A stretch of 64,000 nucleotides of DNA from Gaiellales bacterium (GTDB taxonomy: Bacteria > Actinomycetota > Thermoleophilia > Gaiellales > Gaiellaceae), in NCBI GenBank assembly GCA_038237665.1, contig JBBRYK010000006.1:4907-68906 (forward strand), given 5' to 3'. Positions within the stretch are counted from its first letter, which is position 1; every line of letters starts with the position of its first letter. Shown piece by piece: positions 2,142 through 41,238 of the stretch. Both the position numbers and the translations under genes were made by a program. Under the pieces are notes generated by a model. It had not been told where the DNA came from. It worked only from the letters and a program-made list of their open reading frames with translations, and searched no databases.

Positions 2142-3536
2142 TCAACCTGGGCCATCGAGACCTCCTGTCGGGGTGGCTACGAAGACGGGATCGAGAGCTT
2201 GCACCGCCACGCGGGCGGCTGCGAGGGCCTCCGCCTCATGGAAGCGGCGAGCGACGATCTGGATGCCGTTGGGGAGCGCGATCGACGGCAGGCTGAGCAG
2301 ATTGACCCAGACGACGTCGCGCATGTGGTCGAAGAGGTCTCGGGTCGCGGCCTCGTCGAGCCAGAAGTCGAACTCGAGCGGCGGCGCCTTCATCCCCGCG
2401 ACGGGCGCGACGATCAGCGGGCACTCCTCCATCAGCAGTGCGGTCTCCTGAGCGGTCCGCCGGCGCTCGGCGTACGAGGCCGCGTAGCGCCCGAGGCTGT
2501 CGCCGATGTCGAAGAGGCCGAACATGACCTCGATGTGCTGCCGGTTCCCCTTCGCGATCAGCCCGTCCCAGGCGGGCAGCGCCGAGTGCAGCAGCTCTGA
2601 CCCCACGAGCTCGGCCCAGAGCTCCGGCGCCCGCGGGGCGTTCGGGATGCCGCCTGCGACGACCTCGTAGCCGTCCTGCTCGAGCGCTGCGCACATGCGG
2701 TCCAGCTCACGCTCGATGTCCGGCTCGATCGCCGCTCCCGTCTCGCGCAACATCCGCAGCACCTTGCGCGGGCCGGCCGGGACTGGGTCGACGACCGGAA
2801 CGCTGACCGGGTCGCGCGGATCAGGGCCGGCCAGAACCTCGTACGTCGCCCACAGATCGTCGAGCGAGCGGGCGAGCGGACCGATCGAGTTCATCAGGTC
2901 GAGCGTCATGCCCCCGGCCGCGGGGTTCAGCGCCTGCACGTGCGGGACCCGCCCCGCGGACGGCCGCAGGCCGAAGATGCCGCAGAAGCTCGCCGGCACG
3001 CGGATCGACCCGCCGTAGTCGGCACCGAGCCCGACGGCCGCCATGCCCGCGGTCACGGCGGCGGCGTCCCCACCGGTTGACCCTCCGGGTGTGAGGCTTA
3101 GATCCCGCGGGTTTCGCGTCGGAGGGTAGAGGTCGTTGACCGTGTTCCAGCGGATCTGGAAGTCGGGCTGGTTGCACTTGCCGACGACGAACGCCCCGGC
3201 GTCGAGAAGCCGTTGGACGGCGAGGGAGGTGCCGGGCGAGCGGCGGTCGGCGAAGGCCTTGACCGCCTCCGTGTGACGCATCCCCTCAACATCGAAGTGA
3301 TCCTTGATCGACACCGGGACGCCGTCGAGCGGCAGATGCCCGCGGCCCTCGTGCGCGCGGTCCGCGGCGTCCGCCTCGTCGAGCACGGACCCGCGAAGCT
3401 CGATGATTGCGTGGACGTCGCCGTCGACCGCCTCGATGCGGTCGAGGTGGGCCGCGAGCACGTCGCGGCGGCTGACCGTCCGCTCGCCGACCAACCGAAC
3501 GATCTCCGTCGCGGTCAACTCGTGGAGCTCAGCCAT
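2142..3536 (-). CDS. amidase (amidase-signature family)
   Basis: GGSTGGDAAAV and GGSIRVPASFCG signature motifs. The start is taken at MAELHELTA (ATG 3534-3536); an upstream start at 3548 is possible. Confidence 0.85.
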   Translation of the reverse strand: MAELHELTATEIVRLVGERTVSRRDVLAAHLDRIEAVDGDVHAIIELRGSVLDEADAADRAHEGRGHLPLDGVPVSIKDHFDVEGMRHTEAVKAFADRRSPGTSLAVQRLLDAGAFVVGKCNQPDFQIRWNTVNDLYPPTRNPRDLSLTPGGSTGGDAAAVTAGMAAVGLGADYGGSIRVPASFCGIFGLRPSAGRVPHVQALNPAAGGMTLDLMNSIGPLARSLDDLWATYEVLAGPDPRDPVSVPVVDPVPAGPRKVLRMLRETGAAIEPDIERELDRMCAALEQDGYEVVAGGIPNAPRAPELWAELVGSELLHSALPAWDGLIAKGNRQHIEVMFGLFDIGDSLGRYAASYAERRRTAQETALLMEECPLIVAPVAGMKAPPLEFDFWLDEAATRDLFDHMRDVVWVNLLSLPSIALPNGIQIVARRFHEAEALAAARVAVQALDPVFVATPTGGLDGPG

Positions 3537-5466
3537 GGGCCCGCGCAAAGGCGACGAACGGCTCGAGGACGGCCGGGTCGGCGAGCGCGTCCCGGCTCGC
3601 GACCTCCTCGAGGGCTGCGCCGAGCAGGATGCGCTTTACCGGGAGTTCGAGCTTCTTGCCCGTCAGCGTCTTCGGAATCGCGGGCACTGCCTCGATGCGG
3701 TCCGGCCCGTGCCGCGGCGACAGGCTCGAGCGCAGCGCGGCCACGATTCGCGCACGCAGCGCGTCGTCGAGCTCAAGCCCACCGATGAGGACGACGAAGA
3801 GGATCAGCTCGCCGGCTCCGCCCTCCGCGTCTTCGAGGTGGACGACCAGCCCCTCGCTCACCTCGTCGAGCTCCTCCAGAACGGCGTAGAAGTCGCCGGT
3901 GCCCAGACGCACTCCGCCGCGGTTGAGCGTGGCATCGGAGCGACCGGTGATGACTGAGCCTCCGCTCTCGGTGAGCAGGATCCAGTCGCCCTGCCGCCAG
4001 ACGCCCGCATAGCGGTCGAAGTACGACGCGCGGTACCGCACCCCACCGGGGTCGTTCCAGAAGCCGACCGGCATCGACGGCATCGGCTTCGCGATCACGA
4101 GCTCGCCGACCACGGGGCGGCCGTCGAGGTCGAGCGCCCGTGCGTCGACGCCGAGGCAGCGAACGGACATTTCCCCGGCGCGGAGCGGCACGAGCGGACT
4201 GCAGGCGGTGAAGCCGGAGCAGACGTCCGTGCCCCCGGAGCCGTTGTTGAGGAACACGTCCGGCCCGAACTGGCCCGTGACCCAGCCGTAGGCATCGGGC
4301 GAGAGCGGCGAGCCCGCCGAGCCGAGGACGCGGAGCGGGTGCAGGTCGAAATCGCGGGCGGGCTGGAGGCCGGCCTTCCGCCACAGCGCGATCATGGCCG
4401 GGTTCGTCCCGAACATCGTCGCGCGCGTCTCCGCGACGATGCGCCAGAGCTCGGCCACGTCCGGGTGCGCCGGGTTGCCGTCGAACGTGACGATCTCAGC
4501 GCCGACGAGGAGGCCCGAGACGAGCGCGTTCCACATCATCCAGGCAGTTGTCGTCGGCCAGAAGAGGCGGTCGCCGCGACCCAGGTCCCACTGGAGCCCA
4601 TGGAGCTTCAGGTGCTCGAGCAGGATGCCGCCGTGCCCGTGCACGATCGCCTTTGGCAATCCGGTCGTCCCCGACGAGAAGAGAACGTAGAGCGGGTGCG
4701 CGAACGGCACCGCCTCGAACGCGAGCGGCCCCGGCTCGGCGAGCAGCTCGTCCCAGCCCCCGCGCGAACCGAACTCGCCGTACGGCACGTGCACCGTCGT
4801 CGCCAGGGACGACAGGCCCGCCTCGACCGCGGCCACCTCGGCGGAGCGGTCGACCGCCTTGTCGCCGTAGCGGTACCCGGACACGGTTAGCAGAACCTTC
4901 GGCTCGATCTGGGCGAAGCGGTCGACGACCGCGCGCGCGCCGAACTCGGGCGCGCACGAGGCCCAGATCGCTCCGAGACTGGCCGTGGCGAGGAACGCGA
5001 CCAGCGTCTCGGGAATGTTCGGCAGGTAGGCGACGACGCGGTCGCCCTTGCCGACACCGAGTCGCTCGAGGCCCGCGCGCGCCCGTGCCACCTGGTCGCG
5101 AAGCTCGCCGAACGTGAGGTCGACCGGCGGCCGCGTGTGCGAGCGGCCGTGTACGGCCGGCCGGTCGAGGCCGTCCTCGGCGCCGACCATGTTCTCCGCA
5201 TAGTTGAGGAGCGCGGCCGGGAACCACTCGGCCCCGGGCATTGCACGTGAGCTGAGAACGGCGGTGTAGGGGGCTCGCGCGCGCACACCGAAGAAGTCCC
5301 AGACCGACGACCAGAAACCGTCGAGATCCTCGACCGACCAGCGCCACAGCTCGTCGTAGCTCTCGAACTCGAGGCCCCGGTGCTCGGCGAGCCACCTCAG
5401 ATAGCGACCGATCTCCGTCCGCTCCCGCACGTCAGCTGGCGGCGTCCACACGACGTTAGAAGCCAA
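3529..5466 (-). CDS. acetoacetyl-CoA synthetase-like acyl-CoA ligase
   Basis: 645 aa. The N-terminus VVWTPPADVRERTEIGRYLRWLAEHRGLEFESYDELWRWSVEDLDGFWSSVW is typical of acetoacetate-CoA ligases, with the AMP-binding motif LFSSGTTGLPKAIVH. TTG start overlaps the pobA stop by 11 nt. Confidence 0.85.
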   Translation of the reverse strand: MASNVVWTPPADVRERTEIGRYLRWLAEHRGLEFESYDELWRWSVEDLDGFWSSVWDFFGVRARAPYTAVLSSRAMPGAEWFPAALLNYAENMVGAEDGLDRPAVHGRSHTRPPVDLTFGELRDQVARARAGLERLGVGKGDRVVAYLPNIPETLVAFLATASLGAIWASCAPEFGARAVVDRFAQIEPKVLLTVSGYRYGDKAVDRSAEVAAVEAGLSSLATTVHVPYGEFGSRGGWDELLAEPGPLAFEAVPFAHPLYVLFSSGTTGLPKAIVHGHGGILLEHLKLHGLQWDLGRGDRLFWPTTTAWMMWNALVSGLLVGAEIVTFDGNPAHPDVAELWRIVAETRATMFGTNPAMIALWRKAGLQPARDFDLHPLRVLGSAGSPLSPDAYGWVTGQFGPDVFLNNGSGGTDVCSGFTACSPLVPLRAGEMSVRCLGVDARALDLDGRPVVGELVIAKPMPSMPVGFWNDPGGVRYRASYFDRYAGVWRQGDWILLTESGGSVITGRSDATLNRGGVRLGTGDFYAVLEELDEVSEGLVVHLEDAEGGAGELILFVVLIGGLELDDALRARIVAALRSSLSPRHGPDRIEAVPAIPKTLTGKKLELPVKRILLGAALEEVASRDALADPAVLEPFVAFARAHG

Positions 5467-6619
5467 CGTAGTTCTCCGCCAGCGAGACCGCCGCGGCGTG
5501 CGAGGTCGTCACGTATCGCAGCTGCGAGAGTCGCAGCTTGCGCTCGAACGGGTCGTCCCCGGGCGGGCGGTGGAGCATCGAGGTCATCCACCAGGAGAAG
5601 TGCTCCGCCCGCCACACCCGCGGCAGGCAAAGCTTGGAATAGCGCTCGAGCGCGACGGCGTCCCGGGTGCGATACCACTCGGCGATCGATTCGGCGAGCA
5701 ACCGGACGTCGCGAATGGCGAGGTTCAACCCCTTGGCGCCCGTCGGCGGGACGATGTGCGCGGCGTCGCCCGCGAGGAAGAGGCGGCCGAACTGCATCGG
5801 CTCGACCACGTAGCTCCGCATGCCGGTGACGCCCCTCTCGAGGATCGGGCCTTCCGCGAGCGTCCACCCGTCCACGCCCAGGCGCATCTGGAGCTCCTGC
5901 CAGATCCGCTCGTCGGGCCACCGGGCGATGTCCTCGTCCGGCCGGCACTGCACATAGAGGCGACTCAGCTCCGGCGTGCGCAGGCTGAGCAGCGCAAAGC
6001 CGCGATCGTGCGCGGAGTAGACGAGCTCGTCGTTCGAGGGCGCGACGGCGGCGAGGATGCCGAGCCAGCCGAACGGATACTCGCGTGAGAACTCGCTCAA
6101 CACGCCGTCGGGGACACTGGAGCGGCAGACGCCGTGGAAGCCGTCACAGCCGGCGATCAGGTCGCACTCGAGCTCTTCATCCCGGCCCTCGTGCCGGAAC
6201 AAGACGCGCGGCCGCTCCGACGTCAGGTCGTGGAGGGCGACCGCCTCGGCCTCGAAGAGCAAAGGCACACCTGAGGCGAGGCGGGCCTCGATCAGATCCT
6301 TCACGACCTCGGTCTGGCCGTAGATGACGATTGTCCTGCCGCCGGTCAGGTCGCTCAGCGGGATCCGGTGCCGCTCACCGTCGAACTGGAGCTCGATCCC
6401 GTGGTGGACGATTCCCTCGCGCTGGAGGCGCTCTCCGACGCCCGCCTCGACGAGCAGGTCGACGGTCCCTTGCTCGAGCACCCCGGCGCGGATCCGGTGC
6501 TCGACGTAGTCGCGGCTGCGCGCCTCGAGGACGACCGAGTCGATGCCCTCCAGGTCGAGCAGCCGGGCGAGCGTGAGACCTGCCGGTCCGGCACCGACGA
6601 TGCCGACCTGAGTTCTCAG
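5456..6619 (-). CDS. pobA: 4-hydroxybenzoate 3-monooxygenase
   Basis: Colinear with PobA as I recall it (GQTEV..DL, GCDGFHG, LAGDAAHIVPPTGAKGLNLA). The FAD GxGxxG motif (GIVGAGPAG) lies upstream of the first canonical start (GTG 6481). I therefore extend the gene to CTG at 6617-6619, giving (M)RTQVGIVGAGPAG. Confidence 0.8.
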   Translation of the reverse strand: MRTQVGIVGAGPAGLTLARLLDLEGIDSVVLEARSRDYVEHRIRAGVLEQGTVDLLVEAGVGERLQREGIVHHGIELQFDGERHRIPLSDLTGGRTIVIYGQTEVVKDLIEARLASGVPLLFEAEAVALHDLTSERPRVLFRHEGRDEELECDLIAGCDGFHGVCRSSVPDGVLSEFSREYPFGWLGILAAVAPSNDELVYSAHDRGFALLSLRTPELSRLYVQCRPDEDIARWPDERIWQELQMRLGVDGWTLAEGPILERGVTGMRSYVVEPMQFGRLFLAGDAAHIVPPTGAKGLNLAIRDVRLLAESIAEWYRTRDAVALERYSKLCLPRVWRAEHFSWWMTSMLHRPPGDDPFERKLRLSQLRYVTTSHAAAVSLAENYVGF

Positions 6620-6987
6620 CCCAACTCCTCCTCGAGGACGCGCTGGGCGATCGCGAAGGCCGAGTTCGCGGCCGGCACGCCGCAGTAGATCGTCGAGTGC
6701 AGGAGCACTTCCTTGATCTCGTCAGGGGTCAGGCCGTTGCGAAGGGCGGCTCGGACATGCAGCTCGAGCTCGTGGTCACGGCCGAGGGCGATCAGCGCAG
6801 TGAGCGTGATGCAGCTGCGCGTCTTACGGTCGAGGCCGGGCCGGGTCCAGATCTCGCCCCACGCGTAGCGCGTGATCAGATCCTGGAAGTCGGTCGTGAA
6901 TTCCGTCGCGTTGCCGGTCGCCCGGTCGACGTGGGCGTCGCCCAGCACCTCGCGGCGCACCTTCAGGCCGTCGTCGTACGTGCTCAA
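6616..6987 (-). CDS. pcaC: 4-carboxymuconolactone decarboxylase
   Basis: C-terminal 123 aa of the 414-aa track ORF: STYDDGLKVRREVLG...TRPGLDRKTRSCITLTALIALGRDHELELHVRAALRNGLTPDEIKEVLLH (CMD family). TTG start forms a TTGA overlap with the pcaD stop. Confidence 0.8.
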   Translation of the reverse strand: MSTYDDGLKVRREVLGDAHVDRATGNATEFTTDFQDLITRYAWGEIWTRPGLDRKTRSCITLTALIALGRDHELELHVRAALRNGLTPDEIKEVLLHSTIYCGVPAANSAFAIAQRVLEEELG

Positions 6988-7712
6988 GCGGGCACCTCCT
7001 GGCGAAGATGGGCGAGCACCGCGGCGTTGAACGCCTCCGATTGCTCGACATTGGCGAAATGGGCTGCATCCGGGATGACGACGAGCTCCGCGCCGGCGAT
7101 ACCACCGGCGATCAGCTCCGCATGCGCCGGTGGGGTCGCCGGATCGTGCGCCCCGGCGATCACGAGGGTCGGAGCATGGATCAGCGGCAAGAGCTCCCTG
7201 GCATCCCAGCCGGCAAGCGCTTCGCAGGTGCCCGCGTAGGTCTCGGGCGGGATCGCGAGCAGCATCTCCCGGAACGCGGCAGTCCCGGCAAAGCGGGGTG
7301 TGAGCCACCGGCCCAGCGAGCCCTCGGCGACCGCCGTCATGCCTTCGGCGCGAACGAGGCTCGCCCTCTGGTGATAGCCGTCGGCCGGCCCGAAGTGCGC
7401 CGACGTGCAGGCGAGGACAAGACACTCGATCCGGGCCGGAGCGTGCGCGTCGAGCCACATGCCGACTGCCCCGCCGATCGAGAGGCCGCAGAGCGACGCG
7501 CGGTTGACCTCGAGCTGGTCCAGTAGGTCGACCAACCCGGCCGCCAGACCTTCGATCGTGTTCGCGGACGGATGGTCGTACCGCAGCACGCGAAACGTCT
7601 CCGACAGTGCCGGAACCTGGCGGTCCCAGAGCTCGAACGTCGTCCCGATCGAGTTCGAAAGGACGAGGACGTCTGCTCCCGCCGGCCCGTCGAGTCGGTG
7701 GCGGAGCGTCAT
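6984..7712 (-). CDS. pcaD: 3-oxoadipate enol-lactonase (alpha/beta hydrolase)
   Basis: 242 aa with nucleophile elbow GLSIGG and a C-terminal His region (IPDAAHF). Lies between pcaB and pcaC. Confidence 0.85.
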   Translation of the reverse strand: MTLRHRLDGPAGADVLVLSNSIGTTFELWDRQVPALSETFRVLRYDHPSANTIEGLAAGLVDLLDQLEVNRASLCGLSIGGAVGMWLDAHAPARIECLVLACTSAHFGPADGYHQRASLVRAEGMTAVAEGSLGRWLTPRFAGTAAFREMLLAIPPETYAGTCEALAGWDARELLPLIHAPTLVIAGAHDPATPPAHAELIAGGIAGAELVVIPDAAHFANVEQSEAFNAAVLAHLRQEVPA

Positions 7713-39772: not shown

Positions 39773-40654
39773 TCAGGCGCGAGCTCGGTCGAGCGCCGCC
39801 TCCAGCTCTGCCGGCAGCGGCGACTCGACTTCCAGCCGCTCGCCGCTGAACGGATGGTCGAACCCGAGGCGCGTGGCGTGCAGGAACTGGCGCGCCAGGC
39901 CGTCCTCCGTGACCCCGTAGACGCGGTCGCCGGCGACCGGCAGGCCGACCGCGGCCAGGTGCACGCGGATCTGGTGCATCCGCCCCGTTTCGAGCCGCAC
40001 CCTGAGCAGCGCGTGCCGCGGCAGGAGCTCGAGCACCTCGAAGTGGGTGACCGCGTCGCGGGGCGAGTCGCTGTCGAGCGACTGCCGCGTGGGCTCCGAG
40101 CGATCGCGCCCGATGGGCGCCTCGATCCGCCCTTTCCACGACTGGGGCTTGCCGCGTACGAGCGCGAGGTAGCGACGATCGATCGCTCTCCGCCGGACGA
40201 GGCCCTGGAGTCGCCGGTGCGCCTCCTCGCTTCGCGCCACCACCATCAATCCGGACGTATCCCGATCGAGCCGGTGCACGATTCCGGGCCGTTCCGGGTC
40301 CTCGCCCCCGGCGGCGCCGTGGGCTCCGAGCGCCTGTACGAGCGTGCCCGACGCCCGCCCGGCGCCCGGGTGGACGACGAGCCCGGCAGGCTTGTCGACG
40401 ACGAGCAGGTGCTCGTCCTCGTAGGCGATGGCCACGTCGGGAACGGGCGTTTCGGCTCGGGAGGCATCGGCGGGCACGGCCACCTCGACGACCTCGCCGC
40501 CCTCGAGCCGGTGGCTCTTGCCGCGCGCCACTCCGTCGACCGTGACCCGCCCCGCGGCCACCAGGCGCTCCGCCTCTGCACGCGAGCCGACCGAGGGGAG
40601 GCCGGCGACGAAGCGATCGAGCCGCTCCCCCGCCGCCTCGGGCGGAACCGTCAG
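39773..40654 (-). CDS. rluD: RluA-family 23S rRNA pseudouridine synthase (RluD-like)
   Basis: Catalytic HRLDRDTSG and a C-terminal MHQIRVH. The S4 domain ([32 protein letters not shown]) starts upstream of the first canonical start (GTG 40561). I therefore extend the gene to CTG at 40652-40654, overlapping the lspA stop. Confidence 0.8.
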
Positions 40655-41238
40655 ACCGGTCGCCAGGAGCGCCAGGGCCGCCTGCCCGGGCGCGGCTCAC
40701 GGTCGGCGGCCGCGAGCGCGAGCAGCAAGATCGCGACGCCGATGACGATGAAACTGTCGGCGAGATTGAACGCGGGCCAGTAGCGGAAGTCGAGGAAGTC
40801 TGTGACGTGGCCGAGCCGGATCCGGTCGATCAGGTTCGACATGCTTCCGCCGATCAGCAGGCCGAGCGCCGTCGGCAGGATCGGATGCCGCGCGCCGGAG
40901 CGCGCGAAGAACAGCAGCATCCACCCGACCGCTACCGCAGTTAGTGCCGTTACGATCACCGTCGCGCTCGCAAAGAGCCCGAACGCGATTCCCGAGTTCT
41001 CCACATGGTGAATCGAGAATGGCCCGAGCACGTGAACCTGCTCGTTGAGCGCGAGCGTCCCGGTGACGAGCTGCTTGGTCAGCTGGTCGGCGAGGAGCGC
41101 CGCGACGGCGATCGTCCCGAGCGCAAGCCACTGCGCCGTCCTTGCGCCGAGCGACCGCTCCGCCGCAGAGATCGGCGCCAGGCCGTTCGTGTTCGACCCG
41201 AAGCGAACCTCGACTGCCTTTCGGGCCGGCTCGGTCAG
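40651..41238 (-). CDS. lspA: lipoprotein signal peptidase II
   Basis: DQLTK, NSGIAFG, IGGSMSNLIDR and FNLADS motifs. The start is tentatively CTG 41236-41238 (CTGA overlap). The only canonical alternative is GTG 41334, which overlaps the upstream gene by 100 nt. Confidence 0.75.
   Translation of the reverse strand: MTEPARKAVEVRFGSNTNGLAPISAAERSLGARTAQWLALGTIAVAALLADQLTKQLVTGTLALNEQVHVLGPFSIHHVENSGIAFGLFASATVIVTALTAVAVGWMLLFFARSGARHPILPTALGLLIGGSMSNLIDRIRLGHVTDFLDFRYWPAFNLADSFIVIGVAILLLALAAADREPRPGRRPWRSWRPV

Follow-up and report, generated by a model that had tools for sequence, protein, structure and literature searches.

Termination-reinitiation coupling has been demonstrated for gene pairs whose stop and start codons overlap by 4 nucleotides (nt; ATGA or GTGA) or by 1 nt (TGATG) (Huber et al., 2019, PMC6728339; reviewed in PMC12548453). 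In a term search, CTGA, GTGA and TTGA were not named in the first of these articles, and CUG, CTG and near-cognate were not named in the second, a review of 2025. CTG start codons are documented elsewhere: that of rpsL from Deinococcus was proven by N-terminal proteomics, and another was reported for RepA of an E. coli plasmid (Baudet et al., 2010, PMC2830850). Weak non-canonical starts that set a low or regulated expression have also been described, such as the AUU codons of infC and pcnB in E. coli (cited in PMC2830850 and PMC2268962). Here, we describe the junction between pcaC and pobA, the gene for 4-hydroxybenzoate 3-monooxygenase, in a stretch of 64,000 nt (hereafter the window) from an uncultured soil bacterium of the order Gaiellales (assembly GCA_038237665.1, contig JBBRYK010000006.1, denoted C6). 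The source genome (G000) is a 2.87-Mb metagenome-assembled genome (MAG) of 135 contigs with 69% G+C. At this junction, the conserved N-terminus of PobA is encoded without any canonical start codon (ATG, GTG or TTG), and the start position is occupied by a CTG that overlaps the stop codon of pcaC. It is probable that pobA is functional and that it is translated from this CTG by termination-reinitiation coupling.

The locus shares with the described coupled pairs the co-directional genes, the shared NTGA, a Shine-Dalgarno (SD) motif inside the upstream gene and an operon chained by overlaps. It differs from them in its restart codon, which is CTG instead of ATG, GTG or TTG, and in that the coupling is here a prediction from the sequence. 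As in rpsL of Deinococcus-Thermus and in plasmid RepA, a conserved N-terminus lacks a canonical start and a CTG stands at the homologous start position; the conservation of CTG across genera, seen for rpsL, has its counterpart here at another gene, recF. However, the rpsL and RepA starts were not framed as stop-start overlaps, whereas the present CTG lies on an upstream TGA; the pobA CTG is, in addition, not kept in the nearest relatives and is a predicted start. With the AUU starts of infC and pcnB, the locus has in common a near-cognate codon from which low output is expected, and recF, rluD, the regulators and the catabolic enzymes found in the present study plausibly need little protein. 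In contrast with infC and pcnB, no regulatory loop is seen, and the depletion of C at overlaps (see below) suggests tolerance over design, except perhaps at recF. The pobA junction brings together two known phenomena, coupling and CTG starts, in a putative CTG restart codon within a stop-start overlap. A further article on reinitiation at non-canonical codons (PMC4648390) deals with a eukaryotic 40S/Kozak system and not with bacterial translation, and is irrelevant to this question.

The pcaC-pobA junction

The elements of the junction are as follows (window coordinates).

5456..6619, minus strand: pobA, 4-hydroxybenzoate 3-monooxygenase, 387 codons followed by a TAA stop at 5458-5456
6617..6619, minus strand: CTG, proposed initiation codon of pobA, aligned with Met1 of solved PobA structures
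6616..6618, minus strand: TGA, stop codon of pcaC, making with the CTG the 4-nt overlap CTGA (6619-6616)
6479..6481, minus strand: GTG, first canonical start in the pobA frame, used as the start in the public record
6722..6724, minus strand: in-frame stop bounding the pobA frame upstream, from the open reading frame (ORF) scan
6625..6633, minus strand: Shine-Dalgarno-like GAGGAGGAG (6633-6625), within the last pcaC codons, read from the sequence

From stop to stop, the pobA frame is open over 6721..5456 of the minus strand. No ATG, GTG or TTG occurs in it between the upstream stop and position 6481. An earlier note on this DNA had placed the first canonical codon, GTG 6481, 46 codons into the alignment with PobA and past the GIVGAGPAG motif, and the frame scan bears this out. 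This motif, the GxGxxG signature of the FAD-binding beta-alpha-beta fold, is present in the product only if translation begins at the CTG. The two other structural claims of that note, namely that the CTG aligns with Met1 of PobA and that it overlaps the pcaC stop as CTGA, also hold, the former on both 7on9 and 1pbe. At the junction, the pcaC frame reads GAG GAG GAG TTG GGC TGA and the pobA frame reads GTT GGG CTG AGA ACT CAG GTC GGC ATC GTC GGT GCC GGA CCG GCA GGT. Because the two frames are different, read-through of the pcaC TGA is ruled out as a source of PobA.

A stretch of 46 coding codons devoid of ATG, GTG and TTG is not unusual in this genome (P ~0.13, with ~4.4% of codons being canonical starts). 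The notable point is therefore not the length of the start-free stretch; it is that a conserved PobA N-terminus comes without any canonical start. A codon log-odds score trained on the source genome amounts to -0.65 per codon in the pobA frame before the CTG, +0.38 per codon from the CTG to GTG 6481 and +0.41 over the remainder of pobA. The CTG at 6619-6617 is the sole near-cognate codon at the homologous start position. The remaining near-cognates are a CTG at 6685, an ATC at 6601, inside beta-strand 1, and ACG, CTG and ATC codons deeper in the fold. The CTG at 6685 was rejected as a start: it lies 22 codons upstream within the pcaC coding sequence, in the region with the non-coding score, and is not homologous to any part of PobA. 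The GGAGG core of GAGGAGGAG is at 6631-6627, 7 nt before the CTG, and was graded as a strong SD motif.

The 387-residue product is recognized by the NCBIfam model NF006091 with 610.9 bits (cut-off 351) over residues 2-386. Its score with the TIGR02360 equivalog is 535.5 bits for a cut-off of 538.7, ~3 bits short. In a search of PDB, residues 1-386 align to residues 1-389 of 7on9 and 1-387 of 1pbe (E=1e-141), and residue 1, encoded by the CTG, falls on Met1 of the solved structures (7on9 MRTQVGIIGAGPAGL). The product thus resembles PobA of Pseudomonas (1pbe) and of other bacteria (7on9) in its full-length alignment, its GxGxxG fold and its protocatechuate-branch operon context; it differs in the start codon alone and in the 3 bits missing from the TIGR02360 score. 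The predicted reaction, conversion of 4-hydroxybenzoate to protocatechuate, is backed by this context, with pcaHGBDC directly upstream. Constraint on the protein was evaluated at the 135 columns of the alignment in which at least 95% of the other 86 sequences agree. PobA of the window departs from the consensus at 1 of these columns, whereas other CTG loci depart at 2, 2, 3 and 5, and loci with canonical starts at 0-13. The sequence gives no sign of relaxed constraint and pobA does not appear to be decaying, although a very recent lesion would leave none.

Upstream of pobA, the gene order is a CoA-transferase subunit B-like gene (weak family match), pcaH, pcaG, pcaB, pcaD and pcaC. The pcaHGBDC operon is complete and linked by NTGA overlaps.

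10106-9441, minus strand: pcaH, chained by an NTGA overlap
9444-8947, minus strand: pcaG, chained by an NTGA overlap
8950-7709, minus strand: pcaB, chained by an NTGA overlap
6984..7712, minus strand: pcaD, 3-oxoadipate enol-lactonase, ATG start, ATGA overlap with pcaB
6616..6987, minus strand: pcaC, 4-carboxymuconolactone decarboxylase, TTG start, TTGA overlap with pcaD
3529..5451, minus strand: acetoacetate-CoA ligase gene, directly downstream of pobA (NF002937, 851 bits)

The pcaC product matches TIGR02425 across residues 3-120 of 123. That the pobA junction has the geometry of the other junctions of the operon, as was stated in the earlier note, is verified by the six neighbouring ones: TTGA 6987, ATGA 7712, GTGA 8950, TTGA 9444, GTGA 10106 and ATGA 10807.

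CTGA junctions in relatives and across the genome

About 165 pobA loci were surveyed, the nearest of them from uncultured Gaiellaceae, Gaiellales and Thermoleophilia soil MAGs. Most have ATG, GTG or TTG either at Met1 itself or 1-3 codons before it, and in very many cases this start overlaps the stop of the preceding gene (NTGA or TGATG). A CTGA without a nearby canonical start is found at seven further loci (L046, L050, L065, L069, L141, L157 and L162), that is at 8 of ~165 with the window. Among these seven, only L050 (34 codons) and L069 (40 codons) have a canonical start upstream in the open frame. Their genomic contexts vary. L046 and L050 follow pcaC, and so does L157, at the same codon as in the window; L141, the closest pobA relative overall (80%), follows an aldehyde dehydrogenase gene; L065, L069 and L162 follow a third type of gene. 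In a maximum-likelihood tree, L065 and L069, both with CTG, group as a clade (100/99); the sister of L050 is a GTGA locus, and the window branches separately. These positions imply at least 3-4 origins of CTG among the loci on the tree, and more with L141 and L157 added. CTG is recurrent at pobA, with at least 4 independent origins in all, and is kept in one two-member clade, the nearest relatives having GTG or ATG. It should be noted that C is the sole non-canonical option in an NTGA overlap, so that the constancy of CTG among these loci is trivial; the evidence lies in the recurrence and in the intactness of the genes.

Two other pobA loci also lack a canonical codon at the expected place. 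At L004 (G023:C9), pobA has no in-frame start. The sequence GTGAGGACG-CGCGGACG-CAGGTC resembles an 8-nt insertion of the duplication type after GTGAGGACG, which displaces the GTG of a GTGA overlap from the pobA frame. The locus, likely either an indel error or a pseudogene, was not counted; its MAG carries 'MFD' in its name and is probably long-read-based. At L215 (metagenome contig Ga0066789_10006280), the gene before pobA encodes an aldehyde dehydrogenase and ends with TAG, and the Met1 position of pobA is occupied by ACG. Its sole canonical start is a GTG located 21 codons before the first residue of VGIVGAGPAG and 17 before the Met1 position. Either an ACG start or an N-terminal extension would account for this arrangement.

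A census was made in the source genome of every NTGA at which the coding potential switches from the frame of the stop to that of the NTG, with 40 codons considered on each side. It yielded 618 junctions: 264 with GTG, 174 with ATG, 59 with TTG and 121 with CTG. The CTG class consists mostly of CTGATG, where the true start is the following ATG. There remain 18 CTGA junctions, pobA included, whose open frame has no canonical start at any point upstream and lacks one downstream for 20 codons or more. Pfam searches on the other 17 identified at least 11 in which a domain begins before the first canonical start, one frameshifted PGA_cap gene and five undecided cases. The supported genes, with the residue at which the domain begins versus the codon of the first canonical start, are ECH_1 (9 versus 64), RecF SMC_N (3 versus 25), RluD S4 (10 versus 31), PALP (17 versus 60), tRNA_edit (32 versus 61), GT2 (5 versus 28), GntR (16 versus 74), DHDPS (8 versus 105) and GrpB (24 versus 133). 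The remaining two are an Aminotran_5 gene and a ChlI-like ATPase, the latter resting on the Walker A motif as read and not on Pfam coordinates. The PGA_cap junction, on contig C37 (minus strand, index 14422 of the reverse complement), opens the C-terminal half of a gene and was discarded as a CTG start. Its CapA-like ORF matches profile positions 127-253 of 255 only, pointing to a frameshift in the gene or to an indel in the assembly.

The same stop read with the other frame (NNTGA) served as a control geometry. Here, 8 of 127 junctions lack a canonical start. Inspection of the translations showed that six of the eight look spurious and that one has a normal signal-peptide Met. The eighth is a real FabG-like dehydrogenase in which CTG is again the sole plausible start, within an 8-nt CTGGCTGA overlap. 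Domain-supported cases number 12 of 121 for CTGA and 1 of 127 for the control (Fisher p=0.001). The FabG-like gene, a short-chain dehydrogenase located at ~24,860 of contig C5 (plus strand), runs for 65 codons without a canonical start, in a frame that opens two codons before the CTG. It raises the possibility that CTG starts may extend beyond 4-nt overlaps. An SD motif is missing at most of the other CTGA junctions of the genome, a scarcity that fits reinitiation by a ribosome already in place. A genome-wide scan for ORFs that are coding before any canonical start flagged 101 cases, many of them antisense artefacts of the high (69%) G+C content, and was dropped in favour of the junction census.

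Long-term conservation is seen at recF (contig C5, 7723-8775, plus strand, locus L111). This gene opens with CTG-ATC-GTC, its CTG overlapping the stop of dnaN as CTGA. The overlap lies 29 codons ahead of the Walker A glycine and is shared by 17 other genomes, which each represent a different genus of the family. In these 17, the stretch from the CTG to the Walker A glycine contains canonical starts only in its final nine codons, mostly in the final five, and a single one is found upstream of the CTG, 53 codons away, in L115. Three other genera, as well as the other families of the order, have GTG, TTG or ATG at this codon. A non-functional start would not persist family-wide at a conserved repair gene. 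At the homologous start of rluD, several other genera of the family likewise have CTGA or lack a canonical start, and the PALP enzyme gene has CTGA at its homologous start in several genera. The rluD gene lies in the window itself, with its CTG at 40652-40654 (minus strand) in a CTGA overlap, the S4 domain from residue 10 and the first canonical start at codon 31. A nearby junction at 41236-41238, probably that of lspA, is CTGA as well, but has a canonical start 11 codons upstream.

Proposed initiation at CTG and the competing explanations

The following mechanism can be proposed. A ribosome translating pcaC would terminate at UGA 6618-6616. The ribosome, or its 30S subunit, would remain on the mRNA, aided by the GGAGG located 7 nt upstream, and would reinitiate with formylmethionyl-tRNA (fMet-tRNA) on the overlapping CUG, giving the full-length PobA of 387 residues, starting with M-R-T-Q-V. 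We infer that the CUG is actually used, that the initiator tRNA reads it as fMet and that initiation depends on the upstream termination. Reinitiation is known to require a formylated initiator tRNA (PMC2268962). As CUG is a weak start, the output of PobA would probably be low and tied to the translation of pcaC. A search of the source genome, an incomplete MAG, with aragorn gave no more than 37 tRNAs and no clear initiator among them, as the single tRNA-Met(CAT) does not appear initiator-like. A tRNA-SeC(tca) and a tRNA-Pyl(cta) are predicted by the same program, of which the latter may be a false call.

The earlier note had left the choice between initiation at CTG and a lesion of the start codon. 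The lesion would be a recent G-to-C change, synonymous in the last codon of pcaC (GGG to GGC), that turned GTGA into CTGA and left pobA silent or nearly so, as an incipient pseudogene. Several observations speak for it and weigh against translation from the CTG. No pobA relative of more than 80% protein identity was found in genome or metagenome collections, so that the C at 6619 may be recent, and a recent lesion would show no decay yet. The closest relative having the same pcaC-pobA synteny (G004, 79%) carries GTGA at exactly the position of the window; therefore, the C in the window is a derived and weaker state. Where nothing codes downstream, the base before the TGA of a confident ORF in the source genome (n=196) is C in 59% of cases, G in 23%, T in 13% and A in 6%, so that mutational and compositional pressure favours C at this place. 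At working NTGA overlaps, C accounts for ~3%. This contrast with the 59% background implies that CTG is strongly selected against while composition pressure keeps regenerating it, and some CTGA junctions may represent a slightly deleterious state of short duration. In E. coli, initiation at CUG reaches 1-2% of that at AUG (bioRxiv 10.1101/063800); there, IF3 selects against non-canonical start codons, and reinitiation is inhibited when IF3 is in excess (PMC2268962). As a side observation on stop usage, confident ORF ends of the source genome carry TGA in 910 cases, TAG in 782 and TAA in 176.

Against a lesion stands, in the first place, the state of the gene, with 1 of 135 conserved columns altered, a strong SD motif retained and the rest of the pathway intact. 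Moreover, the same CTGA is borne by seven other intact pobA genes, including the clade in which both members have it, and at recF it is conserved across 17 genera. In the comparison of homologous codons advocated in the earlier note, CTGA recurs at seven other pobA loci, the nearest syntenic relative has GTGA and most loci have ATG, GTG or TTG. Taken as a whole, the comparative evidence (absence of relaxed constraint, the seven loci, at least 11 further junctions in the genome, and recF) favours coupled initiation at CTG, and we regard a lesion as unlikely.

Initiation at another near-cognate codon appears less likely still. The candidate would be the ATC at 6601-6599 (codon 7), which is permitted as a rare start in translation table 11, lies 6 codons downstream of the CTG and would give a slightly shorter protein. 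However, half of beta-strand 1 of the FAD fold would be lost, the ATC has neither an SD motif at a usable distance nor an overlap with a stop, and it is the CTG overlapping the stop, and no ATC further down, that the 18 CTGA junctions and the recF series share.

A -1 ribosomal frameshift at the pcaC stop, by slippage of tRNA-Gly from GGC to GGG, would yield a PcaC-PobA fusion and dispense with a start codon altogether. The final sense codon of the upstream gene is indeed a GGC with a G before it in the window, L065, L069 and L162, so that re-pairing in the -1 frame is possible. The site, G_TTG_GGC_TGA, is nevertheless no X_XXY_YYZ slippery heptamer, other CTGA junctions end with ATC, CTC, TTC, GAC and the like, which are unable to slip, and PobA homologues are stand-alone proteins beginning at this residue; we give this explanation hardly any credence. 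Equally little can be said for an assembly or consensus error masking a G at 6619: the genome is a MAG of 135 contigs, but consensus assemblies seldom contain substitution errors, this genome has at least 11 further supported CTGA starts, and the geometry recurs in MAGs that stem from independent studies.

A sensible picture is that CTG is a weak start, usable mainly because a terminating ribosome is delivered to it, and tolerated at genes that need little protein. Some genes, recF among them, would maintain it, whereas elsewhere it would be transient. At pobA, the strong SD motif may add to the coupling.

Possible consequences for annotation and for reinitiation in Gaiellales

The public protein collection contains, as a singleton cluster, the exact 341-residue product read from GTG 6481 onwards (window 5456-6481, minus strand). 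The 387-residue form of PobA was looked for in the same collection and was not found. As the 341-residue form alone is deposited, the public annotation of this enzyme is devoid of its FAD-binding fold. Gene finders limited to ATG, GTG and TTG shorten such genes, and this applies equally to recF, rluD and at least nine other genes of the source genome. In reconstructions of the degradation of 4-hydroxybenzoate and lignin monomers by the abundant soil Gaiellales, a PobA of 341 residues would be scored as non-functional.

It may be that ribosomes of Gaiellales, and perhaps those of many soil lineages with a high G+C content, restart after termination at UGA on an overlapping CUG well enough to serve real genes, so that NUGA coupling would work with any N; we find this generalization as easy to doubt as to accept. 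If it is true, there exists a hidden class of CUGA-coupled genes, amounting to ~0.5% of the genes and ~3% of the 4-nt overlaps of the source genome, that gene finders truncate systematically. The weak CUG would then be actively maintained at some genes, for instance family-wide at recF, where it would hold expression low. Reinitiation on CUG at CUGA junctions would extend the accepted rules of termination-reinitiation, and the genes concerned would offer a natural system in which to study the stringency with which the first base of the start codon is inspected by IF3 and the initiator tRNA in reinitiation.

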